Shown: positions 1-51,595 of the stretch, one piece after another
How positions within the stretch are numbered: position 1 is the first letter of the stretch
Layout: each line of letters starts with the position of its first letter
Assembly: GCA_028279705.1 (NCBI GenBank)
Contig: JANQNF010000024.1
Location: 48,257 to 112,256, forward strand
Source of the DNA: an archaeon
GTDB taxonomy: Archaea > Aenigmatarchaeota > Aenigmatarchaeia > QMZP01 > JAFGSV01
Reading direction: 5' to 3'
DNA length: 64,000 nt
The notes under the pieces: model-generated
Database searches by the model: none
Told to the model about the DNA's origin: nothing
Seen by the model: the letters and a program-made list of their open reading frames with translations, nothing else
Translations under genes and position numbers: made by a program

Positions 1-543
1 ATTAAAGTGGAGAAGGAAAGGCTCTACATGATGGAGGGCGGACACGTTTTCCCCATAGTCAGCGAACTTGTAAGCGACCTTAACTTGAACGACCACGAGA
101 TAGAGAATCTCATAGAAAAGAAAAAGAAGATTTACAGTGAAATGACGAAAAACCTCAAGATGAGGCCGGAAGCAATAGAGCTCATAGAGAAACTGAGGAA
201 GCTAAACTACAGGATAGGACTCGCTACCGGAAGCCACAAGCATGTGGTTGACGTGCACGTTTCCCAAGAAGAGTACGGGCTTTTTGATTACGTTCTTACT
301 CTTGAGCAGACGAAAAAACCCAAACCCGATCCGGAGCCTTACATGAAGTGCGCAAAAGGCCTTGACGTAAAGCCTGAAGAAGTCGTCGTGATCGAGAACG
401 CACCGCTTGGAGTCGAATCGGCAAAGAGTGCCGGCATGATATGCATAGCCCTCACAAGCACGGTCTCAAAAGAGGACCTCGAAAGGGCTGATTTTGTAGT
501 AGAATCACTTAATGATGTTGAAGATATCATCAAAAGCCTGTAA
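1..543 (+). CDS. HAD-superfamily hydrolase (beta-phosphoglucomutase-like), 5'-partial; open from window start
   Basis: Frame open from nt 1. HAD motifs II/III/IV are visible (GLATGS..., KPKPDPEPY, VVVIENAPLGVESAKSAG). Motif I (DxDG) is absent, so the N-terminus lies upstream of the window. Confidence 0.6.
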   Translation: MKVEKERLYMMEGGHVFPIVSELVSDLNLNDHEIENLIEKKKKIYSEMTKNLKMRPEAIELIEKLRKLNYRIGLATGSHKHVVDVHVSQEEYGLFDYVLTLEQTKKPKPDPEPYMKCAKGLDVKPEEVVVIENAPLGVESAKSAGMICIALTSTVSKEDLERADFVVESLNDVEDIIKSL

Positions 544-586
544 ATGTCAAGACTATCGGATCATAGAGACCCGGATATGACAATAA

Positions 587-787
587 TCAAAGTTCATACC
601 CGGCATTCTGTTTACCGTTTTGTGATACCGCTTTCTCGCTTTTTGCAGCGAGGCTCATCTTCGCGTATATGTCCATGTCCGCATCGTTAATGAGTTCAAG
701 CGGATTCGGACGTTCAAGTGGGCCATTCGTCCCGTACATCGACAGCGGCCTTAAGTCTTTATTCACACCCTTTACATTCTCAGTCAT
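587..787 (-). CDS. small hypothetical protein (~66 aa)
   Basis: ORF track 587..817. I prefer the internal ATG at 787 because GGAGGTGA sits 5 nt upstream as a Shine-Dalgarno. No recognisable domain. Confidence 0.35.
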   Translation of the reverse strand: MTENVKGVNKDLRPLSMYGTNGPLERPNPLELINDADMDIYAKMSLAAKSEKAVSQNGKQNAGYEL

Positions 788-1014
788 TTCCTCACCTCCA
801 TCATATTTTGAAGGCACCAGACAGGTCCGGGGAGAAAAAACTCTTTCTCAGGGAAATGAAGAAGAATTGATGCACCCCGGGAAACCTATGACTAATTATT
901 CTAGGATAATTAGCCCGGTAATACCCATGTGATGCATAACATATCATTCGTTGCGCACTTTTAAATACTTTTGCCTCATGCTTGCGCTTCAGCGTTGTTA
1001 TTTGCCGTAGAAGT

Positions 1015-1043
1015 GAAAAAGAAAAATAATCCCGAGAGGGAGA
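1015..1043. repeat. Direct repeat copy A (gaaaaag-aaaaataatcccgagagggaga); second copy at 3174-3203
   Basis: 28/29-nt identity with one indel to 3174-3203, in the same orientation. Confidence 0.85.
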
Positions 1044-4854: not shown

Positions 4855-4929
4855 GGGACCGTGGTGTAGCTTGGCCTAGCATCGGGGCTTCGGGAGTCCC
4901 AGACCTGAGTTCAAATCTCAGCGGTCCCA
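4855..4929 (+). tRNA. tRNA-Pro (CGG)
   Basis: 75-nt cloverleaf GGGACCG..TTCAAAT..CGGTCCCA with anticodon loop TTCGGGA. Confidence 0.8.
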
Positions 4930-4963
4930 TCGAATGACCCCCAAAACAATTATACGGTAAAAT

Positions 4964-5038
4964 GGGGCCGTAGTGTAGTTTGGCCTATCACTCGAGGCTG
5001 GGGGCCTCGTAACCGGAGTTCAAATCTCCGCGGCCCCA
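4964..5038 (+). tRNA. tRNA-Pro (GGG)
   Basis: 75-nt cloverleaf GGGGCCG..TTCAAAT..CGGCCCCA with anticodon loop CTGGGGG. Confidence 0.8.
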
Positions 5039-5050
5039 TCCTTTTTTTAT
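5039..5050 (+). terminator. oligo-T archaeal terminator after the tRNA-Pro pair
   Basis: A T7 run lies immediately 3' of the tRNA. Confidence 0.4.
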
Positions 5051-5072
5051 ACACGATTGAGCAAATGGAAGT

Positions 5073-5236
5073 ATGGGAAAAAATAAGGCAGACGAGGCAG
5101 GAGGCCTGGTCTTTGTTGGCGGGTTCTTCATCGGTTTTGCCGTCGGTGTACTAATGGGAAGGTATGACGTTGCTGCATTCCTTGCGCTTGGGATAGGATT
5201 CTTAGGTATGGCCGCTGTTCGTCTGAAGTCCAAGTG
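5073..5236 (+). CDS. small hydrophobic protein (54 aa), not in the ORF track
   Basis: ATG..TGA ORF MGKNKADEAGGLVFVGGFFIGFAVGVLMGRYDVAAFLALGIGFLGMAAVRLKSK with two predicted TM segments. Confidence 0.3.
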
Positions 5237-5289
5237 AATGAAAATCCTGCGTCGCTAGGATTTTTATTTAGGCCCTGACAACTATTACT

Positions 5290-6141
5290 ATGCTAGGATG
5301 GCTGCTTCTTGCAATAGGAGTCGTGGGTTTCAGCTGCGCCGGCTGGAAGGACTTAAAGACTACGGAATTTGAGGACTGGCTCCCCTACTCCATCATAATA
5401 GCCGCGCTCGCCGTTAGGGGAGTGTTTTCGCTTGTTTTAGGAGATTTTGCTATAATAACAGATTCCATCCTTTACGGACTCATCTTCCTTGGATTCGGCT
5501 ATCTCCTATACATGCTCAGGCAGTGGGGAGACGGCGACGCCTGGCTCATGGGGGCAATGGGATTTCTTTTTCCAAACGCGACGGGATTTGCGCCATTTTT
5601 CGCAAGCAGCATGCCATTTCCTTTGCTTGTGATATTCAACTTCTTCATGGTCGCGCTTGTGTACATGATAGTCTATTCATTCATACTTGGCATAAGGAAA
5701 CCAAAAGTGGTAGCGACTTTCAGAAAGAACCTGCAGATACGGAAGAAAGCGATTGTATATGTTTTTGCCCTTCTGCTTTCTGTGACAATATTTACTAGCT
5801 TGTACTTGTCGTCAGTTTATCCTGTAACAATCTCTGCGTTCACCGGTCTCTTCACACTACCTTTTGTAGCCGCGGGTATATTGGTTTTCCTTCAGTATGC
5901 GAGAGCCATTGAGAATGACCTTTTCAAGCGAAAGATAAAGATGAGGGATCTAAGAGTAGGTGACGTCCTCATGACGGATAGAGTAAGAGGACTCACCGAA
6001 GAGGAAGTGAACAAGCTGAAGAAGAAGGGCGGCAGCGTGTGGATAAAGGAAGGCGTCAGGTTCGCACCTGTCTTTGTCATAAATCTCTTGGTCACACTTT
6101 TCATCGGGAACCTGATGGCACTTTTCATACCGCTGATATAG
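5290..6141 (+). CDS. A24-family prepilin/preflagellin peptidase (PibD/FlaK-like)
   Basis: Polytopic membrane protein. The GDGDAWLMGAMG motif resembles the catalytic GGGDVKLL box, and there is an upstream Asp in TM1 (LGDFAIITD). Confidence 0.55.
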   Translation: MLGWLLLAIGVVGFSCAGWKDLKTTEFEDWLPYSIIIAALAVRGVFSLVLGDFAIITDSILYGLIFLGFGYLLYMLRQWGDGDAWLMGAMGFLFPNATGFAPFFASSMPFPLLVIFNFFMVALVYMIVYSFILGIRKPKVVATFRKNLQIRKKAIVYVFALLLSVTIFTSLYLSSVYPVTISAFTGLFTLPFVAAGILVFLQYARAIENDLFKRKIKMRDLRVGDVLMTDRVRGLTEEEVNKLKKKGGSVWIKEGVRFAPVFVINLLVTLFIGNLMALFIPLI

Positions 6142-6238
6142 AATCCTGATATCTACCCATTAGTCATTGATGAAAAACGAAGAAAACAAACGATATAAAA
6201 ACAAATAAAAAAATTGCCGATGTGGCGGTAAACGCGAT

Positions 6239-6523
6239 TTATGCGCTCTTTACCCTGTCTACACCGGACTTCTTTACTACAGGCTTTTTCACCTTGGCTG
6301 GAAGCCATGATGGCCTGTTTGCAGGCGCGTCAATGACCTTGACTGAACCCTTGAACTTGTGGATTGTGAAGGTCCCGTCCTTGTTTCGCCTGCCCCTCTC
6401 CCTGAGCTTGATGTCACCGAAGCCCCTGGCTGCGGCTTTCAATGCTGCCTGTCGAGGAGATTTTCCGGTAAATACGTGCTTTGTTCCACCAACTTTCATT
6501 TCGTAGTATTTTTTTGCTGCCAT
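6239..6523 (-). CDS. chromosomal protein MC1 family
   Basis: VFTGKSPRQAALKAAARG...LRERG...HKFKG..KVIDAPANRPSWLPAKVKKPVVKK aligns by eye with Methanosarcina MC1. I chose the internal ATG because AGGAGGT lies 7 nt upstream. Confidence 0.7.
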   Translation of the reverse strand: MAAKKYYEMKVGGTKHVFTGKSPRQAALKAAARGFGDIKLRERGRRNKDGTFTIHKFKGSVKVIDAPANRPSWLPAKVKKPVVKKSGVDRVKSA

Positions 6524-6640
6524 AATTTTACCTCCTGATAGAATTTTCAATGAAATTATGGTTTCCTGACTTATAAATGTTTACGCTAGGTGCTTATTTC
6601 GGATTGAAAAGTAACAAAAAACGGGTGCATGGGCGACATT

Positions 6641-7546
6641 TTATCTTAAAACCGTCATCGTGCGAAGCTTCTTATACCAGTAAACCATTTGCTTTACTTC
6701 TTCCTCGAAATTACCAACCGGCTCGTATCCAAGTTCCCTTTCAGCCTTTCGTATTACGTAATGCCTGTTTATTGTGAGCACGTCAAGATAGTTCTTCATA
6801 CCTGCAGTCCTGGCCATGATACCGACCATGAAAGACGGCAGCTTCCTTGGGTTCTTTCCAAGCGCCCTCATTAAAATCTCTGCAAAAGTGACGAAAGGCA
6901 CGGGGTCCTTTTCGGCTATGTTGTACACACCGCTTCCCTTCTCGACTGCCTTGACAAAGGCCTGGACAGCGCTTGATATGTGGGTTACGTGTGTGAGTTT
7001 TCTGGTCCTTGGTATGGGAAACCCCCTTTCCATTAGGCTTAAGTTCTTCATCCAGTTAGGGCTTCCCTTGCCGTAAATTGGTGCTATCCTCAGTATGGTA
7101 TAAGGTATGCCGGAGTCAATGATGTACTTTTCTGCCATACGCTTGGATTCTCCATACGGTGTCTTTGGCGTCAGCGGATATCCTTCATCAGCTTCCCCCT
7201 TTATTTCACCATAGACCGAAACGCTTGAAGCGAATATGAACTTCTTTGCGGACTTGCAGTGGTCGAGAAGATTCCTCGTACCGATCGCGTTTATCCTGAA
7301 CAGCTCTTCCCTTGGCATGGTGTAAGAAACCAGTCCCGCCAGGTGGATGACAGTGTCAACGTTTCTGAGCGGGCTTATCAGAGTCTGGGGCTTTGTGATG
7401 TCTCCTATTGCTATTTCGGCTTTTTTTGGCACCTTCTCTGCTTCTTTCCTGTTCATGCAGAGTGCTCTTACCTTATGACCCTTTTCAAGCAGGCTCTGAA
7501 CGACATTCCTTCCAACAAAACCGGATGCACCAGTGACGAGAAGCAT
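6641..7546 (-). CDS. NAD-dependent epimerase/dehydratase (SDR family)
   Basis: N-terminal TGASGFVGRNVV Rossmann motif, YGESK catalytic region, about 300 aa. Confidence 0.75.
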   Translation of the reverse strand: MLLVTGASGFVGRNVVQSLLEKGHKVRALCMNRKEAEKVPKKAEIAIGDITKPQTLISPLRNVDTVIHLAGLVSYTMPREELFRINAIGTRNLLDHCKSAKKFIFASSVSVYGEIKGEADEGYPLTPKTPYGESKRMAEKYIIDSGIPYTILRIAPIYGKGSPNWMKNLSLMERGFPIPRTRKLTHVTHISSAVQAFVKAVEKGSGVYNIAEKDPVPFVTFAEILMRALGKNPRKLPSFMVGIMARTAGMKNYLDVLTINRHYVIRKAERELGYEPVGNFEEEVKQMVYWYKKLRTMTVLR

Positions 7547-7597
7547 ATGTTATTATTCCCGGCGGTACATTTAAAAACCTGCTGCCAATCTATAACA

Positions 7598-29092: not shown

Positions 29093-30232
29093 ATGGCGAT
29101 CAAAACACTAGCTATTATGTCAATGGCACTAGTTGTCCTTTCCATCAGCTTTACAGGCGTGCAGGCATACGAATTCAGTGAAGACTGGGAAACCGGGTCG
29201 ATTTCTTCACTCAAGTGGGCGACGTCAGGGACAAACCAGTACAGAACTTACGTGACGACTGGGTACTCACCCCGTGACACATACCACATACGCATGGACG
29301 ACAGCAGGGGCGACGGGACTTACAGCAGGAACGAACTAACCACTAAGGAAGACTTTTCCGGTGCAACGACCATGCAGCTGAGCTTCTACTGGAAGGAGCA
29401 ATATGACGAGAGTCATTACTGCCCGTCTACATGGAACTTCAGCGCGAACGGGGATTGTGTGGCTTTCACATGCGACGGATTCGTCTGGCATAAGATAATA
29501 GACCTTACAGGCGGTACAAGTTCGTACAAGAACGAAGTATACAACATATCCACACATCCAAACTTCTGTGAAGAAGTGGACTCTTCGTTTGCCATAAAGT
29601 TCCAGCATTACGACAACTATCCGCTTGGCAGTGACGGAATCTTCCTTGATGACATATCAGTAACCTATGAAATCGAGAACGATGACTCCTGCGAAGACAG
29701 CGACGGCGGGATTGTTGCAGATGTCTTTGGCTATTTGACCATTTCACTTAACGGCAGCCAATACAACCAGAGCGATTACTGCGACGACGGTTCCACTGTC
29801 ATGGAGTACTACTGCGACGGTAACTATGAAGAGTCCCAGCTGACAAGCTGCGGTACAGACAGTTACGGCGATGCCTACTGCATCGGGGACGATGTGTACA
29901 AAGACTACACTGACAACTACTGTTCGTATGGTGCGTGTGATTACAGTGTGACACCCACACTGCAGGAATCATGCGAATACGGATGCTATGGTGGCTCCTG
30001 TAATGAGCCGCCTGCCGACTACTGCAATGAAACCGATGGTGGAATGTTCCCCTACACGTTTGGTACAGCATTTGGGTTTTTCAGTGGTTATTCCTATAGT
30101 GAACCCGATTTCTGTGTGAATAACGTGACGTTAACGGAATTCTACTGCAGCGGGGACTATCACTATGAAACGAACATAAGTTGCGTGGTAAACGGTACAG
30201 GTTATTGCTACGATGGCAAATGTCAGTTCTGA
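29093..30232 (+). CDS. secreted Cys/Tyr/Asp-rich repeat protein, hypothetical
   Basis: Signal peptide MAIKTLAIMSMALVVLSISFTGVQA, then repeated YCDDG/CxxDxY modules. Confidence 0.55.
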   Translation: MAIKTLAIMSMALVVLSISFTGVQAYEFSEDWETGSISSLKWATSGTNQYRTYVTTGYSPRDTYHIRMDDSRGDGTYSRNELTTKEDFSGATTMQLSFYWKEQYDESHYCPSTWNFSANGDCVAFTCDGFVWHKIIDLTGGTSSYKNEVYNISTHPNFCEEVDSSFAIKFQHYDNYPLGSDGIFLDDISVTYEIENDDSCEDSDGGIVADVFGYLTISLNGSQYNQSDYCDDGSTVMEYYCDGNYEESQLTSCGTDSYGDAYCIGDDVYKDYTDNYCSYGACDYSVTPTLQESCEYGCYGGSCNEPPADYCNETDGGMFPYTFGTAFGFFSGYSYSEPDFCVNNVTLTEFYCSGDYHYETNISCVVNGTGYCYDGKCQF

Positions 30233-30340: not shown

Positions 30341-31195
30341 CTATATCTTTTTTATCTTTCCTGGTGTCGGTTCGTAGCAGACGCCTTCCCCAAGGAGCTC
30401 GTTTATCACGCCTTCGAGGTCTTCCTCTGGCGCTCCCGACTGCTGCATGAGTTCGCTGTACTTTATTCCTTCTTGGCTGCCTTCTATCAGCGTGAGCACT
30501 TTCTTCCTGAGGTTCTCGCCTTCTGCGGGTTCAGGTTTTTCTTCTTCCTGCGGCTTTGGAGGTTCAGGCTTAGCATCGGCTGCCTCAGGCTTTGCTTCAG
30601 CTGCTGGTTCCGGCGCTTTTGCAGGTTCTTCCTTAATCGGTTCCGGTTGCGCTGCCTGCTGGGGTGCTGGAGGCGTTTGCGTCTTCACCGGTTCAGCTGC
30701 TGGTTCCGGCTTTGCTTGGGGTTCTTTGGTTTCCGGTGGAGCCTGTGCAGGCTGAGTAGGCTCTTCCTTTGGCGCTTCCTGCACGTTTCCGGACCTCTTC
30801 TTGATCAGTTCCAGAACCTCGAGCCTGAAAAGCGTTTCCTGGTCTGGAGTTATCTTGGTTATGATCTCCGGTACTATGTATATCTCGCCCTCGTATTCCC
30901 GCACCTTGCCTATGAGATTCACGAGGTCTCCTACCTGGACAGTGTTTAGAAGTTCTATCTCCCTCCACAGCTTGGCCCTGATGGAAGCCGTGGAATCGTC
31001 AAGCGTGATTGAAGAGAAGTTGCCGTCTTCGGAAGTGAACTTACCTACTACGGTTCCCGCTATCCTGGCTCTTGCGATGTTTTCCTTGGCCGGGGTGATA
31101 ACGTAGCTTGGTTCCATTCCTTCCTTTTTCACCCACTCGCCGCTTATCAGGTCAACTGCCCGGACTTTCTTTGCGGTCTGTCTCTGAATTGGCAT
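30341..31195 (-). CDS. OB-fold + winged-helix protein (RPA32-like architecture) with P/E/A/K low-complexity linker
   Basis: N-terminal OB-like block (ARIAGTVVGK...IRAKLWREI...VGDLVNLIGKVREYEGEIYIVPEI), about 90-aa PEAK repeats, C-terminal wH (LIEGSQEGIKYSELMQQSG...LLGEGVCYE). Confidence 0.5.
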   Translation of the reverse strand: MPIQRQTAKKVRAVDLISGEWVKKEGMEPSYVITPAKENIARARIAGTVVGKFTSEDGNFSSITLDDSTASIRAKLWREIELLNTVQVGDLVNLIGKVREYEGEIYIVPEIITKITPDQETLFRLEVLELIKKRSGNVQEAPKEEPTQPAQAPPETKEPQAKPEPAAEPVKTQTPPAPQQAAQPEPIKEEPAKAPEPAAEAKPEAADAKPEPPKPQEEEKPEPAEGENLRKKVLTLIEGSQEGIKYSELMQQSGAPEEDLEGVINELLGEGVCYEPTPGKIKKI

Positions 31196-32707: not shown

Positions 32708-33520
32708 TCACAGCCACGTGCTTTTCAGGTCTTTAAGCTTCCCGGTCGTTTTCATGTTCCTGAGAATCTTGTTGATTTCATCCATGAGTGCAACGTTGTC
32801 GAGATTTGTCGCTATCCCGTAATATTCCTGGGTGAACGGCTCACCGACCATTTTCAAATCATCAGGATTTTCCTTTACGTAACCGGAAGATCCGATAAGG
32901 TCAGTGACCAGCGCATCTATTTCCCCGGCTTTCAGGTCTTCTATTATCTCTTCGTAACCCGGATAGCCTATCACGGATTCCCTGTCCGCGTATTCCAATA
33001 CGGCCTGTTCGCACGTCGTGCCTGCACTCACTCCCACTTTTGTACCGTTTAGGTCTTCGGGACCTTTTATGTCATCGTTTTCCACTCTTACGGTTATTAC
33101 CTGGCCCGCGTCGAAATACGGGACACTGAAAAGCATTTCTTCCTGCCGCTCAGGTGTTATTGTGATCGCAGAGATTATTATGTCGACTTCCCCGCTTTTC
33201 ACAGCGTCGAATAGTTCTCCCCACGGTATTTGCTTGAATTCGGTGGCGACTCCCATCTGGGCCGCAATCTCCCTTGTGACATCAAGGTCGTATCCGACAA
33301 ATTCTCCGGACTCGTCAATATACTCCATCGGCGGGTAATCCGGAATTGCACCAACGACAAGTTTCCCACTCGCCTGTACGTCAATAAGTGATGTGTCGGT
33401 TACCACTTTTTCTTCTTCAACCGTCTGCGTGCATCCTGAAATTACTAAGACTGAGAAAACAAATAATACGAAAATAACGTTTTTCGAAATCATTCTCCCG
33501 ATATAATAATTGGCATCCAT
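32708..33520 (-). CDS. family-3 solute-binding protein (polar amino-acid SBP fold), lipobox-like ISGC
   Basis: GKLVVGAIPDYPPMEYIDESGEFVGYDLDV... SBP_bac_3 pattern. No adjacent permease or ATPase. Confidence 0.65.
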   Translation of the reverse strand: MDANYYIGRMISKNVIFVLFVFSVLVISGCTQTVEEEKVVTDTSLIDVQASGKLVVGAIPDYPPMEYIDESGEFVGYDLDVTREIAAQMGVATEFKQIPWGELFDAVKSGEVDIIISAITITPERQEEMLFSVPYFDAGQVITVRVENDDIKGPEDLNGTKVGVSAGTTCEQAVLEYADRESVIGYPGYEEIIEDLKAGEIDALVTDLIGSSGYVKENPDDLKMVGEPFTQEYYGIATNLDNVALMDEINKILRNMKTTGKLKDLKSTWL

Positions 33521-33926: not shown

Positions 33927-34085
33927 TAAAACTATGTTTCATTTTTCACCTTAAATAATATGATCCCCGCATAGACGCGGGGTTTTTGATACCTTCTCCA
34001 CCGATGCAGTTTTCACATGCTAAGAATGAACATTTCGTCACTTCTTCTGACTAACCTATAAATTGGATGACAGAGAATTATATTC

Positions 34086-35936
34086 ATGGCAACTGAGCTG
34101 AAAAAAGAACTGGGACTGATACACGTCGTGATGCTTTGTACAGGTGCCATAATGGGCACGGGCATCTTCATCATACCAGGCGTTGCGGGCGGCCTCATGG
34201 GTCCTGGGTCAATGATACTCTGGGTCATAATAGGATGCCTTACAATACCGATAAGCCTGTGCTTCATAGAACTTGCGTCGAGCTATAACATCACAGGGGG
34301 CCCGTACGTATATGTCAGGGAAGCCATGGGCGACTTCTGGGGCTTCATAACCGGGTGGACCGCCTGGCTTATGGCGTGCATATACATAGGGACGCACACG
34401 ATAGCCATAAAGTATTACTTGGATTATTTTTACGAACTTACTTTCGTTGAGTCTGCCGTGCTTTATGCCGGCGTCATAGGCATCATAACACTTGTCAATT
34501 ATGCAGGCGTAAAGCAGGGGGGCAGGACACAGCTTTTCCTTACGCTTGGAACGTTTTCCGTGCTTGCGATATTCATAATATTCGGACTTCCCAAGGTCGA
34601 CATGACAAACTTCGACCCGCTGTTTCCGCTTGGACTTTCAGCTCTTGGGATGACCGCCGTATTGATAGTCGAGCCGTTCATAGGCTGGGAGACGACGACT
34701 GTCATCGCAGGTGAGGTCAAGGACACCAAGAGGAACATACCGCTCGGACTGGTGATATCGACCGTTCTCATAATGTCTTTCTACCTGCTCACGGTGTTCG
34801 TGACGCTTGGTGTCATGAACTGGGAGATGCTGGCCGAATCGGTCTCACCCATGGCGGACGTGATGAAGCTTGCCTACGGAAGCTTCATGGGCATGATGAT
34901 GACCGGCGGTGCAATAGTGGTAAGCCTTGCCTGCCTGAATGCGTGGATACTCACGACTGCGAGGCTTCCATACGCCATGGCAAAGGACAAGCTTTTCCTT
35001 GACTCCTTTGGAAACATAAGCAGGAAGTACAATACACCGTCGAGATCGCTTCTGGTCCAGGCTATCATAGCCTTCGTCATAACACTTACGGGTTCATACG
35101 AAGGTGCGGTATTCCTTCTCATGGCAAACGCGCTGATGCTTTATGCGCTCTGCGCATTGTCTGTCATAAAGCTTAAGAAGAGGCCGGTAGACAGGCTCAT
35201 AGACCTTCCCGTCGTCATACCACTCATGGCTTTTGTCATGTGCATAATACTGCTCATACAGATACCGTTCGAGCTCATGCTTTCTGGACTGATGCTCATA
35301 GCGTTTGGTATACCGATCTACATAATGATACGGGTAACTTATGACAAGGAGTTCCTTGAGAAATTCTACAATGCGGTGTCACCGCTTTATGATGTGATCT
35401 CACCGCTTTGGTATGGAAAGGGCAGAAGGGACAAGGTGATAACCAACGCCGATGTGAAACCTGGCAACATAGTTCTTGACTACGGCTGCGCGACAGGTAC
35501 AGACGTTGTGGGACTTTCAAAGCTTGTTGGAAGTGAAGGCAAGATAGTTGCAGTGGACATATCCATAAAGCAGCTTGAAAGGAGTGTTGAACGCGCAAAG
35601 AAAATACCCGGAATGCCGAACGTGGCCTTTGTCAAGGAAGGAAAAGAGCTCATGCCGTTTGAGGCAAACACGTTCGATCGTATAGTTTCCGTCGGCGTGC
35701 TGTCATACCAAGACGATCCGACCGAGCTGCTCAAGGAATTCAGGAAAGTGCTTCGGAAAGGCGGGAAAGTGAGCATACTCGATTTCGGCAGGGCACTTTT
35801 CGTCCCCAAGGCAAAATACCTCAAATCCCACGAGACCATAAAGAAGACATTTAATAGCGCTGGATTCAAAGACATTAATGTGGAAAAAAACAGCAGCATC
35901 TCTGCTGAGTACTACTACATAACTGCAGTGAAGTGA
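34086..35936 (+). CDS. APC-family amino-acid permease fused to a C-terminal class-I SAM-dependent methyltransferase domain
   Basis: 12-TM APC-like N-terminal part, then motif I VLDYGCATG and the post-I/II blocks of a type-11 MTase, in one continuous 616-aa ORF. Confidence 0.6.
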   Translation: MATELKKELGLIHVVMLCTGAIMGTGIFIIPGVAGGLMGPGSMILWVIIGCLTIPISLCFIELASSYNITGGPYVYVREAMGDFWGFITGWTAWLMACIYIGTHTIAIKYYLDYFYELTFVESAVLYAGVIGIITLVNYAGVKQGGRTQLFLTLGTFSVLAIFIIFGLPKVDMTNFDPLFPLGLSALGMTAVLIVEPFIGWETTTVIAGEVKDTKRNIPLGLVISTVLIMSFYLLTVFVTLGVMNWEMLAESVSPMADVMKLAYGSFMGMMMTGGAIVVSLACLNAWILTTARLPYAMAKDKLFLDSFGNISRKYNTPSRSLLVQAIIAFVITLTGSYEGAVFLLMANALMLYALCALSVIKLKKRPVDRLIDLPVVIPLMAFVMCIILLIQIPFELMLSGLMLIAFGIPIYIMIRVTYDKEFLEKFYNAVSPLYDVISPLWYGKGRRDKVITNADVKPGNIVLDYGCATGTDVVGLSKLVGSEGKIVAVDISIKQLERSVERAKKIPGMPNVAFVKEGKELMPFEANTFDRIVSVGVLSYQDDPTELLKEFRKVLRKGGKVSILDFGRALFVPKAKYLKSHETIKKTFNSAGFKDINVEKNSSISAEYYYITAVK

Positions 35937-35937
35937 C

Positions 35938-36432
35938 ATGAAAGTAAAAGACATAATGACAAAGAATCTCATAAAGTTCAAGCCGGGCCAGACGCTGCAC
36001 GATGCCCTTGAGGCATTCACCAACAAGAACATTTCCGGTGCACCGGTCGTCAAGGACGGCAAGCTGCTGGGTCTTATAACCGAGCTTGACGTCATAAAGG
36101 TCATAGACATTTACACACCAAAGGTACATTTCACGTCAATGCCCCATTTCTTTTTGGTCCTTGCAGGGCTTAAGAGCAGGAAGAAGGCAACAGAGCTTAA
36201 GAAGAAGATAGTGGCCGCATCAAAGCTCAAGATCGAAGATTTCATGACGGCAGAACCCGTCACGATAGAGGAAGGCGCCGACATAATGGAGGCTGCGAGA
36301 ATCATAGACACTTACAAGGTGAACAGGATTCCCGTAATGCACGGTGACAAGCTCTGCGGCATAATAACGAGAAACGACATAATCAAGTCCGTTGCAAAGC
36401 TCGAACTGTCGCTTGTGAAGAAAAAGAAATAA
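35938..36432 (+). CDS. CBS-domain pair protein
   Basis: Two CBS motifs (IMTKNLIKF...GAPVV, FMTAEPVTI...RIPVM). Confidence 0.75.
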   Translation: MKVKDIMTKNLIKFKPGQTLHDALEAFTNKNISGAPVVKDGKLLGLITELDVIKVIDIYTPKVHFTSMPHFFLVLAGLKSRKKATELKKKIVAASKLKIEDFMTAEPVTIEEGADIMEAARIIDTYKVNRIPVMHGDKLCGIITRNDIIKSVAKLELSLVKKKK

Positions 36433-36459: not shown

Positions 36460-37923
36460 ATGGATAAGAGTGACATTTTTCAGGACCCTGATCTTGATCA
36501 GGTCTTCATGACTGACGAGAATGTGCTTTCAGACATCATAGAACTCTGTGACCTGAAGAAGAGCGAGACCGTCCTTGAGATAGGTTCTGGTCCCGGTAAC
36601 CTGACAGAAGCTCTCGCAGCGAAGTGCAAGAAGGTCGTGACAATAGAGATCGACGAGCGGAGAAAGGACGAACTGGAAAAGAAGTTCTCGGGAAAGAACG
36701 TCCAGATCGTCTGGGGAAACGCGCTGGAAATTCTTGAGAAGAAGAGCGTGCGCTTTGACAGGATCGTCGCAAACCCACCTTACGCAATAAGCGAGGCGCT
36801 CATAAAGGCACTTTTCAGGCACGATTTTATATCATCCATACTCACGCTTCCTTCGAAGTTCGTCGAGAGGCTTGCTGCGAATCCGGAGGAAGACCGTTAT
36901 TCAAGGCTTTCGCTTTTTTCCCAGGCTTTCTTCAAGATCGAGACTCTTCTTCGCGTGGAAAAGAGCGCGTGGACGCCGAGTCCTGATACATCAAGCTTCG
37001 TTGTCAAGCTGACGCCCAGAAAACCTGCGGATTCAAGAGAGCTCTTACTTAGAGAGATGTCGCTGCAGGACGACAAGAAGCTGAAAAACGCGCTGAGGGA
37101 TGCGATGTCCAAAAGTGACGGCAAGACGAAGCGCAGCGCCATGGAAGTTATCAGAAACGCCGGTGTGCCAAAAAAACTTCTGGACAAGAAGATAAGCGAG
37201 ATTGGGCTCCGGGACATAATGGAAGTTGCTGCCAAATTCGGAGGAAAGAAATACAAGCTTGTTGCCTTCGACCTTGACGGTACGCTGATCGACGAGAAAG
37301 AATGCATATGGAAGATCATACACGACCATGTCGGAACCGACCCGAAGATACGAGAAGATCTCATGGAAAAATTCTTCAGCGGGAAGATAACCTATGCAGA
37401 CTGGGCTTACCACGACATCGAGAGATGGAAGGAAATGGGGGTTACGATGGACACTCTTGCCAAAAAGGTAAAAGAGTTCAGACTGATGCCCGGCGCCATG
37501 GAGACTTTGAAAACGCTGAAGAAGAAAGGATACAAACTCGCATTGATATCCGGAAGCATAGGCATAGTGCTTGACACATTCATACCCGATGCTCACAGGA
37601 TATTCGACCACGTCGTCATAAACAGGCTGACGTTTGAGGACGACGGAAAGATAACCGGAATAGACGTTCCAGAAGACTACAAAGAAAAGGAGAGCAAGGC
37701 CAGGTCACTTGAAAGGATAGCGTCACTTGAGGGTGTTAGTCCTGAGGAGTGTGTCTTCGTCGGGGACTCAGACAACGACTTCGATGTCATGAAAGTCTCC
37801 GGACTTTCGATAGGATTCATGCCGACCAAAAAGATATCATCGGTCAGCGATGTCATCATAAAAAAGAAAGACGTACGCGAGATAATGAAATACCTGAATG
37901 ATGGTCAACACAATCCCTTGTAA
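36460..37923 (+). CDS. KsgA/Dim1-type rRNA adenine dimethyltransferase fused to a SerB-like HAD phosphatase domain
   Basis: N-terminal VLEIGSGPGNLT and IVANPPY (KsgA). C-terminal FDLDGTL...GDSDNDFDVMKVSGL (HAD motifs I and IV). A single 487-aa ORF. Confidence 0.6.
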   Translation: MDKSDIFQDPDLDQVFMTDENVLSDIIELCDLKKSETVLEIGSGPGNLTEALAAKCKKVVTIEIDERRKDELEKKFSGKNVQIVWGNALEILEKKSVRFDRIVANPPYAISEALIKALFRHDFISSILTLPSKFVERLAANPEEDRYSRLSLFSQAFFKIETLLRVEKSAWTPSPDTSSFVVKLTPRKPADSRELLLREMSLQDDKKLKNALRDAMSKSDGKTKRSAMEVIRNAGVPKKLLDKKISEIGLRDIMEVAAKFGGKKYKLVAFDLDGTLIDEKECIWKIIHDHVGTDPKIREDLMEKFFSGKITYADWAYHDIERWKEMGVTMDTLAKKVKEFRLMPGAMETLKTLKKKGYKLALISGSIGIVLDTFIPDAHRIFDHVVINRLTFEDDGKITGIDVPEDYKEKESKARSLERIASLEGVSPEECVFVGDSDNDFDVMKVSGLSIGFMPTKKISSVSDVIIKKKDVREIMKYLNDGQHNPL

Positions 37924-48151: not shown

Positions 48152-49530
48152 TTATGGCAGTAAAAGAGTACAAGTCCGTTGAGAGGGTCTTTGGACCGCT
48201 CATAATCGTTGACAAGGTATCAGGTGTCAGCTACAACGAGATGGTCGAGATAAAGACTGCGACCGGCGAAAAGAGGTTCGGCCAGGTGCTTGACGCGATG
48301 AAAGACAAGGCGGTCGTCCAGCTTTTCGAAGGGACTTCAAACCTTGACACAAGGGACACGAGCGTAAAGTTTCGTGGCGAGAGCATGAGGCTTGACGTTG
48401 GCGTTGGAATGCTTGGACGCGTATTCAGCGGTGCTGGAAGGCCGATAGACAACCTCGGCGACCTTGTCCCAGAAGACCGCCTGGACGTAAACGGATTTCC
48501 AATAAATCCCGCTTCGAGGGAGTTTCCAAAAGAATTCATCCAGACAGGCGTTTCTGCAATAGATGGCATGAACACGCTTGTCAGGGGACAAAAGCTTCCC
48601 ATATTTTCTGCTGCAGGCCTTCCGCACAACCAGCTTGCTGCACAGATTGCAAGGCAGGCGACCGTCCTCAAGGGCAAGAGCAATTTCGCAGTGGTCTTTG
48701 CTGCTATCGGCATAACTGCAGAGGAGGCAAGGTTTTTCAGGGAGAGCTTTGAAGAAAGCGGTTCCATGGAAAGGATCGTAACGTTCTTAAACCTTGCAGA
48801 CGACCCGACGATCGAGAGGATAATAACCCCAAGAGCAGCCCTTACGACAGCGGAGTTTCTCGCGTTCAAGCACGGCATGCACGTCCTTGTAATAATGACT
48901 GACATGACAAACTACTGCGAGGCCCTAAGAGAGGTGTCTGCTGCAAGAGAAGAGATTCCCGGAAGGAGGGGATATCCCGGTTACATGTACACCGATCTTT
49001 CAATGAATTACGAGAGGGCTGGGAGGATAAAGGGAAAGAAGGGGAGCATCACGCAGCTTCCGATCCTTACGATGCCCTCAGACGACATAACCCATCCCGT
49101 TCCAGACCTTACAGGATACATCACCGAAGGGCAGATCGTGCTTTCAAGGGAACTGCACAGGAAAGGTGTATTCCCTCCAATAGACGTTCTTCCGTCCCTT
49201 TCAAGGCTCATGCAGCAGGGAATAGGTGCCGACAGGACAAGAGGCGATCATTCAGGAGTTTCAAACCAACTCTACTCAAGCTATGCCGAAGGAAGGGACC
49301 TAAGAGACCTTGTCGCAGTCGTTGGCGAGGAGGCCCTCGGGGAGCGTGAGAAGAGCTTCATAGAGTTCTCTGACAGGTTCGAGGGAGAGTTCACAAACCA
49401 GGGGCCGAAGGAAAACAGGACAATAGACGACACGCTTTCAGTTGCCTGGGACATAATGGCTTCCCTTTCGAAAAAAGACCTCAAGAGGATAGACCCCGAG
49501 TTCGTCGAGAAGTTTCTCAAGAAGGACTAG
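48148..49530 (+). CDS. atpB: A-type ATP synthase subunit B
   Basis: Non-catalytic B-subunit blocks ([26 protein letters not shown]). Confidence 0.85.
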
Positions 49531-51382: not shown

Positions 51383-51432
51383 GAAACTCCCAGAAATTTT
51401 ATTAATGTTACCCTGTCATTATATTCATCGAT

Positions 51433-51529
51433 GGGCCTGTAGCTCAGTCTGGTTAGAGCACCCGGCTCTTAGGGGTCACTTGACCACGGAGAAACCGGGG
51501 CGTCGCGGGTTCGAATCCCTCCAGGCCCA
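51433..51529 (+). tRNA. tRNA-Lys (CUU) with 22-nt intron at the canonical 37/38 position
   Basis: GGGCCTG-TA-GCTC-AGTCTGGTTA-GAGC-A-CCCGG-CTCTTA[22 nt]A-CCGGG-GCGTC-GCGGG-TTCGAAT-CCCTC-CAGGCCC-A. Confidence 0.7.
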
Positions 51530-51595
51530 TTTCATTTTCTAAAGTTTTCCCACAGAAGACCGAAGGGTTTTTATTACTTTCTTTCAAGAATCAAT

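Follow-up and report, generated by a model that had tools for sequence, protein, structure and literature searches.

Secondary transporters of the APC type, for example the SLC7-type and prokaryotic carriers BasC, GkApcT, AdiC, ApcT and human LAT1, xCT and y+LAT1, have a membrane domain of twelve transmembrane helices (TMs) in the LeuT/APC fold, with a G-[ST]-G-I-F motif in TM1 and an F-x-G-W-E motif in TM6, and none of these has an enzyme domain. Others (APC-Usp and APC-PTS_EIIA_2 proteins and the SLC12 cotransporters) have an APC membrane domain with a cytosolic C-terminal (alpha/beta) domain after TM12, and these appended domains are non-catalytic regulators. Transporters are paired with methyltransferases at the operon level in the E. 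coli systems TehA/TehB (tellurite) and MmuP/MmuM (S-methylmethionine permease and homocysteine methyltransferase), where the enzyme acts on or uses the transported compound; to our knowledge MmuP is an APC permease and TehA is not, and MmuM is a Zn-dependent TIM-barrel enzyme. CBS pairs accompany transporters in OpuA, MgtE, ClC and CNNM/CorC, and stand-alone CBS proteins such as MJ1225 and MJ0100 are also known. Here we describe a locus that resembles all of these in part. It lies in a 64,000-nucleotide stretch of aenigmatarchaeal DNA (positions 48,257 to 112,256 of contig JANQNF010000024.1, assembly GCA_028279705.1; called the window below), in which an uninterrupted open reading frame at 34086..35936 of the forward strand (616 amino acids (AAs), from an ATG start to the stop codon TGA at 35934-35936) joins an APC permease to an S-adenosylmethionine (SAM)-dependent methyltransferase. 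It is followed at once by a gene for a CBS-pair protein (35938..36432, forward strand, 164 AAs). Unlike the appended regulators, the C-terminal domain here looks like a complete SAM-methyltransferase with conserved binding motifs, and unlike TehA/TehB and MmuP/MmuM, which are encoded by separate genes and have no CBS partner, transporter and methyltransferase are a single polypeptide. Each part belongs to a known family; what is new is a class-I methyltransferase covalently joined to an APC carrier, plus the CBS partner. Full-text literature searches found no description of an APC-methyltransferase fusion and no characterised ortholog.

That this is a real single gene for a transporter plus a methyltransferase is confirmed. 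The original prediction, made from the sequence of the window alone, had read it as one 616-AA frame joining the two and had called such fusions uncommon, and both statements hold. The competing idea, that a frameshift in sequencing or assembly, or a chimeric contig, has made one gene out of neighbouring permease and methyltransferase genes, has a negligible chance of being right. We found nothing in its favour, and against it stand three observations: two assemblies independent of each other encode exactly this 616-AA protein (on an NCBI contig of 348 kb and on a Logan contig of 96.6 kb), dozens of unrelated contigs show the fused architecture and keep its junction motif, and no split permease-plus-methyltransferase gene pair was found among the relatives surveyed. 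A frameshift, which the original prediction had named as a possible undoing of its claim, is thus rejected: dozens of lineages share the fusion. The N-terminus of the protein, MATELKKELGL, agrees with those of its homologues, so the start codon is placed correctly.

The homologues were collected in two ways. A word-indexed search of 5.8 billion proteins gave about 30 full-length proteins with the matching two-domain architecture, ranging from 100% down to 28–30% identity, whose named sources are Candidatus Aenigmatarchaeota. HMMER was also run exhaustively against 1.84 billion cluster representatives (50%-identity clusters) with a query profile consisting of TM12, the linker and the methyltransferase, and gave 24 matches at E≤1e-30; about 70 of the best 150 matches have an APC domain and then the full linker/methyltransferase profile at residues ~400–640, and 53 of those ~70 fused cluster representatives are near full length. 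Conservation was counted in 61 fused sequences, in which the permease and methyltransferase halves are equally conserved (0.45 each). Source names for a selection spread over the fused homologues are Aenigmarchaeota, Woesearchaeota or just "archaeon", and every named source of the fused family is a DPANN archaeon (Aenigmarchaeota or Woesearchaeota). Database annotations call these proteins only "amino acid permease", "APA family antiporter" or "hypothetical protein", and ignore the methyltransferase half. A generic methyltransferase peptide-pattern scan of genome contigs had at least three true family loci among the matches listed.

Candidates for a split form fell away. The closest APC-only relative, P0029, has an overlapping downstream gene of 231 AAs, the product of which spans the membrane several times and is unrelated (hhalign probability 0.2%), and the short top matches that might have been soluble split halves are actually gene fragments or single-TM or Zn-ribbon variants. 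The family has divergent branches as well. In a subgroup of proteins of ~610–640 AAs (P0219, P0225, P0244, P0265, P0190 and P0218) the methyltransferase is at its usual position and the membrane half is highly divergent, to the point that AA_permease_2 matches faintly or not at all (E 5e-8 to none). Some proteins of a Woesearchaeota-type clade, here called clade B, have ~200 extra residues after the methyltransferase; these are P0163, P0172, P0211 and P0214 (827–858 AAs; the P0172 gene is at 5001..7562 of locus L090). This extension was considered as a possible fused CBS pair, and it has no CBS match; Pfam gives only a weak DUF3108 match in P0172.

The permease half (AAs 1–419, 34086..35342) is recognized by Pfam AA_permease_2 (PF13520; AAs 9–393, E 1.4e-46, 159.7 bits against a gathering score of 27) and AA_permease (PF00324; 141.8 bits against 24.6). 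A phmmer search of the PDB matches it to xCT, BasC and GkApcT at E 1e-26 to 4e-30, and solved APC transporters overall at 1e-17 to 4e-30. In an AlphaFold2 (AF2) model of the whole fusion (mean per-residue confidence, pLDDT, 86.1; pTM 0.79) the membrane half superposes in Foldseek on BasC, LAT1, Asc-1, y+LAT1, GkApcT, AdiC and ApcT with target-normalised TM-scores (TMt) of 0.76–0.85 (0.83 for BasC), and the alignments with BasC, LAT1, AdiC and ApcT span ~420–450 columns. It is predicted from this model to have the 12-TM LeuT-type fold, and Pfam, phmmer and AF2/Foldseek agree in this with the 12-TM APC-type transporter of the original prediction. The TM1 motif is G24-T25-G26-I-F (G24 in 48 of the 61 sequences, T or S at 25 in 51, G26 in 43 and F28 in 48), and the TM6 motif is F198-I-G200-W201-E202 (F198 in 48, G200 in 52, W201 in 43 and E202 in 50). 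The TM1 G-x-G and the TM6 motifs are substrate-site elements in APC structures, and their retention argues for a working carrier with an alpha-amino-acid-like cargo. No NCBIfam transporter subfamily or equivalog cut-off is reached by the fusion protein; the best transporter match is TIGR00909 (2A0306; 243 bits against a cut-off of 556.8), and BcaP (161 against 690 bits) and TIGR00905 (APA; 147.6 against 409 bits) fall short as well.

One position sets the fused permeases apart from BasC. A mostly conserved threonine, Thr156, aligns with the TM5 lysine of BasC (Lys154), and lysine is never seen there in the fused family, so the ion or proton coupling mode may differ from that of the ApcT/BasC-type carriers. 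Genes for Na+/H+ or Na+/Ca2+ exchangers adjoin the fused permease gene in three loci (L006 5475..6818, L094 2659..3600 and L096 1759..3968), and such a gene also adjoins that of the APC-only relative P0029 (L085 3163..4920). Together, the neighbouring Na+ exchangers and the replacement of the TM5 lysine by Thr156 are a hint that transport by the fused permease could be Na+-linked.

The junction between the two halves is short. According to DSSP of the AF2 model, TM12 is a helix at AAs 408–419, and after a single residue it is followed by the lid helices 421–443 and 447–454 (lid/linker AAs 421–454, 35346..35447, which are also covered by conservation and by the Pfam Ubie_methyltran match); no disordered linker between TM12 and the methyltransferase is predicted. 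The lid motif is YDKxFxExFY..S.LYD..SPLWYGKG, of which the ...SPLWYGKG portion is specific to the clade of the gene studied here. The pLDDT of the linker (68–78) is the lowest of the model, so the orientation of the two domains relative to each other is only moderately certain.

The remainder of the protein (AAs 455–616, 35448..35933) is the methyltransferase core, modelled as a seven-stranded Rossmann-like sheet. Pfam methyltransferase models match at AAs ~427–577 with E values of 1e-19 to 8e-15, all above their gathering scores: Methyltransf_31 (68.1 against 27 bits), Methyltransf_25 (60.6 against 27), Methyltransf_11 (55.7 against 21.2) and Ubie_methyltran (PF01209; AAs 427–570 including the lid, 68.1 against 20.1). 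Motif I is L464-D-Y-G467-C468-A-T-G471 (in the stretch VLDYGCATG at about AAs 462–470), and the other SAM-contact sites are D491-I-S493 at β2, E518 at the end of β3, D531 at β4 and Y541 after β4. Among the fused proteins G467 is conserved in 95%, G471 in 96%, D491 in 86%, S493 in 93% and D531 in 88%; D or E is present at position 518 in 46 of 61, and Tyr or His at the post-β4 position 541 also in 46 of 61. From these profiles and the model, the C-terminal domain is predicted to be a complete class-I SAM methyltransferase with intact SAM-contact motifs. The original prediction had proposed a cytoplasmic class-I enzyme from the motif VLDYGCATG and had allowed that a profile search might find no SAM-binding fold; profiles, predicted structure and conserved motifs all see the fold.

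The methyltransferase belongs to the small-molecule UbiE/COQ5/PMT/TmtA structural class, and its structural neighbours include Coq5, UbiG, PmtA and cyclopropane-fatty-acid-synthase-like proteins. Of the UbiE/ArsM-like subfamily suggested in the original prediction the type stands, but orthology does not: the scores against the NCBIfam equivalogs are far below their cut-offs (52–59 bits against 158–420 for the UbiE/MenG models PRK00216.x, TIGR01934 and TIGR02752, and 68.5 against 263 for the ArsM model NF008823), so it is not an ortholog of UbiE or of ArsM. Assignments as PMT or TehB were likewise rejected, as the matches are below curated cut-offs or merely generic fold matches; one clade B member has a weak TehB Pfam match (1.5e-5), which the protein studied here does not have. 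Relative to the UbiE/COQ5-type enzymes (Coq5, TmtA, PmtA, RebM, ArsM and the phosphoethanolamine N-methyltransferases) the fused domain is merely 14–28% identical and differs in being covalently tethered to a transporter. ArsM has a multi-cysteine As(III) site, whereas the sole invariant cysteine in the methyltransferase half of the fused proteins is C468, inside motif I. The nearest stand-alone methyltransferases are unnamed, or are "UbiE" by automatic annotation.

The ATG of the CBS gene is one base past the stop codon of the fusion gene (junction TGAcATG). Its product matches the CBS family (PF00571) in two stretches (107.3 bits against 24, E 4.8e-31), and the partners in loci L005 and L007 likewise have two CBS repeats. 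A homologous CBS gene is directly downstream, at gaps of 1–9 nucleotides, in L002, L005, L006, L007, L088, L096 and L097, so that with the locus studied here the adjacency is present in eight of the nine loci examined in the broad clade (the exception is L094), even though several of the CBS-linked family members are merely 31–39% identical to the fusion protein studied here. As judged from this gene order, the fusion and CBS genes form a conserved two-gene module, or operon, in the clade of the gene studied here. The CBS pair thus differs from those of the known CBS-regulated transporters in being encoded by a separate gene, closely coupled in translation, that tracks the methyltransferase. 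In the partner studied here each of the two repeats retains the ribose-site motif G-h-h-[TA]-x-x-[DN]. Among proteins of solved structure it is most similar to MJ1225, CBSX1/2 and MJ0100; all of these are adenosyl-ligand-binding proteins, and for that reason they do not reveal the ligand of this partner. The CBS operon partner, the DPANN-wide family and the lack of orthology with UbiE or ArsM were all missed in the original prediction.

The CBS partners also share a conserved insert of ~40 residues between the repeats (AAs ~57–95 of the 35938..36432 product), which includes a short hydrophobic stretch and has the pattern …D-x-x-x-P-[KQR]-[VI]-[HR]-[FY]…F-x-x-I-L-x-x-x-K…; this insert may serve to dock the protein onto the membrane or the methyltransferase. 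Apart from the CBS gene, the fusion has no conserved neighbour across the examined loci, metabolic genes included: the PAS-like, SBP_bac_3, DRG GTPase, aminotransferase and KsgA-HAD genes of the window are not beside divergent family members, and the variable neighbours in other loci include genes for purine biosynthesis, BacA, a DEAD helicase, ribosomal proteins and tRNA synthetases.

A possible permease-less variant is encoded on the 1.8-kb contig L088 (ENA ERZ23498358 scaffold_246293), where 176..1015 specifies a 279-AA protein in which a zinc ribbon (CxxC...CxxC) and one TM, the counterpart of TM12 by homology, come before the linker and the methyltransferase; it is 62.6% identical to AAs 379–616 of the fusion studied here. 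Downstream are a CBS gene (67% identity) and then KsgA (49%), in the same order as in the window, and the upstream gene, as read from its translation, resembles the end of a FolD-type enzyme and not a permease. The domain swap in L088 may be genuine, or this short contig may be chimeric. Transporter-less relatives anchored in the membrane by a single TM are P0121 and P0151; P0127 may be a fragment. The CBS gene tracks the methyltransferase and not the permease, since it persists in the permease-less variant, and if such variants are real, a membrane-tethered methyltransferase plus CBS pair has been selected even without the permease.

What the module does can be approached from several directions, and the two ideas put forward in the original prediction, coupled uptake and methylation or a regulatory domain, are still the two leading hypotheses. 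Our best guess, held at somewhat less than even confidence, is an active-enzyme transport metabolon under the control of a CBS adenosyl ligand. The permease would work as a secondary transporter for amino acids or amines, of the APC, SLC7-like kind. One residue beyond its last TM would begin the lid of a SAM-dependent small-molecule methyltransferase, which would be catalytically competent and kept close to the membrane on its cytoplasmic side. The acceptor would be a small molecule passing through the attached permease, either a cargo that is methylated on arrival and so trapped or converted, or a cytoplasmic compound that is methylated just before export, and the co-translated CBS-pair protein would bind an adenosyl ligand (of the AMP/ATP or SAM/S-adenosylhomocysteine (SAH) class) and tune the module to energy or methyl-donor status. 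Points in favour of the metabolon are the conserved acceptor-side lid and post-β4 Tyr/His, the small-molecule structural class of the methyltransferase, the apparently rigid tether to TM12 and the permease-less variant. A number of things weigh against it. No metabolic gene, with the CBS gene set aside, is conserved beside the module in the loci examined, the inter-domain orientation of the model is only moderately confident, the permease-less variant depends on one 1.8-kb contig, and CBS adjacency is found in none of the three clade B loci. The β2 acidic residue is replaced in ~4–6 of the 61 members, so catalysis may not be universal. In sister APC clades the corresponding C-terminal place is taken by classical regulatory domains (Usp or PTS-EIIA-like), a point for the regulatory reading, and methylating imported proteinogenic amino acids would be wasteful, since these archaea are reported to be without amino-acid biosynthesis (PMC8407114).

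Several of these same observations bear on the regulatory alternative, in which the methyltransferase fold, no longer chiefly an enzyme, binds SAM or SAH and, with the CBS protein, gates the permease by methyl-donor or energy status, for example by throttling methionine or amino-acid uptake. We regard this sensor as possible and nearly as likely as the metabolon; the two models are close. Other members of this APC branch have a C-terminal Usp (PF00582) or PTS_EIIA_2 (PF00359) domain in the position of the methyltransferase, the full-length model picks up in Foldseek APC-fold SLC12 transporters with a large C-terminal cytosolic domain, the few members without the β2 acidic residue still keep the domain, and the failure to find conserved metabolic partner genes in the loci examined also fits a sensor. 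The conserved CBS-pair partner, with MJ1225, CBSX1/2 and MJ0100 among its nearest solved relatives, counts in the same direction, as CBS pairs are classical adenosyl-ligand regulators of transporters (OpuA, MgtE, ClC), and methyltransferase-fold SAM sensors exist (SAMTOR). In a variant of this idea the cargo is itself SAM or a SAM precursor that the domain receives or senses, and fungi have APC-family SAM carriers (PMC5177730). On the other hand, the whole lid and the post-β4 Tyr/His, which only an enzyme needs for its acceptor pocket, are conserved, a Zn-ribbon/TM12/methyltransferase/CBS protein without a permease would be a regulator without a target, and clade B has no CBS partner; sequence alone cannot tell a sensor from an enzyme.

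Two further proposals seem less probable. One, a DPANN-confined group translocator ("vectorial methylation", under CBS control), in which the covalently attached methyltransferase would modify the cargo of a secondary-carrier scaffold during its passage through the membrane, or else a SAM importer or exchanger whose SAM-binding domain receives the cargo, is in our opinion a long shot; we know of no counterpart, among the described transporter classes, of methylation-coupled translocation or of a SAM importer with a receiving domain. Quite unlikely, too, is a membrane-anchored methyltransferase whose target is itself part of the membrane, be it a protein, a prenylated compound or the head group of a lipid, with the permease mainly an anchor or neighbour and its cargo not the acceptor. 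In its favour are the match to the UbiE/COQ5 Pfam family together with its N-terminal lid (AAs 427–570), the membrane-embedded substrates of some structural neighbours (Coq5, UbiG, the phosphatidylethanolamine N-methyltransferase PmtA and cyclopropane-fatty-acid-synthase-like proteins), and the single TM by which transporter-less relatives such as P0121 and P0151 are still anchored. But a 12-TM permease with conserved substrate-site motifs would be an implausibly costly anchor, the UbiE/MenG equivalogs score far below their cut-offs, and a quinone or lipid pathway is unlikely because, according to PMC8407114, Aenigmarchaeota have neither an electron-transport chain nor membrane-lipid biosynthesis.

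Upstream of the fusion gene, a TATA-like box (cctATAAATt, 34057..34066, forward strand), read by eye from the sequence, lies ~20–27 nucleotides 5' of the ATG; it is a putative archaeal promoter, from which the fusion transcript would be leaderless or have a short leader. An Rfam scan of the region upstream of the gene gave no riboswitch or other RNA element at gathering thresholds. Farther upstream, at 33963..33987 (forward strand), there is a perfect hairpin, rich in G+C and with a T-run after it (CCCCGCatagaCGCGGGGTTTTT-like), which is in the divergent intergenic region between a PAS-like gene on the reverse strand and the fusion gene and matches no Rfam family. At 32708..33520 (reverse strand) is a gene for a 270-AA SBP_bac_3 solute-binding protein (E 5e-39) with an N-terminal hydrophobic segment and a cysteine (…VISGCTQ); it has no adjacent ABC permease or ATPase gene and is not beside the fusion in other loci. 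Downstream of the CBS gene, 36460..37923 (forward strand) encodes a second unusual fusion, of 487 AAs, in which a KsgA/RsmA 16S rRNA adenine dimethyltransferase (PF00398, AAs 11–219, E 4.5e-41) is joined to a HAD-IB phosphoserine-phosphatase-like hydrolase (AAs ~265–480; TIGR00338 at 1e-32, below its cut-off). In L088 the CBS gene is followed by a KsgA gene too, and that contig ends before any HAD part.

Other features of the window include an RPA-like OB-fold protein whose long low-complexity linker is rich in Pro, Glu, Ala and Lys (30341..31195, reverse strand) and a 379-AA cysteine-rich protein with repeated C-x-D/Y-C modules (29093..30232, forward strand), to which the source contig's annotation assigns no Pfam family and whose N-terminal hydrophobic stretch, by visual reading, resembles a signal sequence. 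Adjacent tRNA-Pro genes (CGG and GGG) are present at 4855..5041, and a tRNA match at 51432..51530 (forward strand) is 97–99 nucleotides long against a 71-position model and was given no anticodon by ARAGORN ("ttag"); its excess length and missing anticodon suggest an intron-containing archaeal tRNA.

With their minimal genomes, DPANN archaea are believed to obtain amino acids from their hosts, and in one survey the Aenigmarchaeota have just one, uncharacterised, type of amino-acid transporter (PMC8407114). A permease wired to a SAM-binding domain, often together with a CBS sensor, probably stands where nutrients from the host meet the methyl and energy metabolism of the symbiont. If the cargo is what the methyltransferase modifies, transport would be coupled to methylation, of which examples are rare; if the domain is a SAM sensor, a methyltransferase fold would be gating a prokaryotic transporter; and if SAM itself is imported, genome-reduced symbionts could draw on the methyl-donor pool of the host. 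The annotations "amino acid permease" and "APA family antiporter" would be corrected in any of these cases, and the fusion and CBS genes together are a defined, clonable two-gene target for the study of metabolite acquisition and processing in uncultured symbionts.

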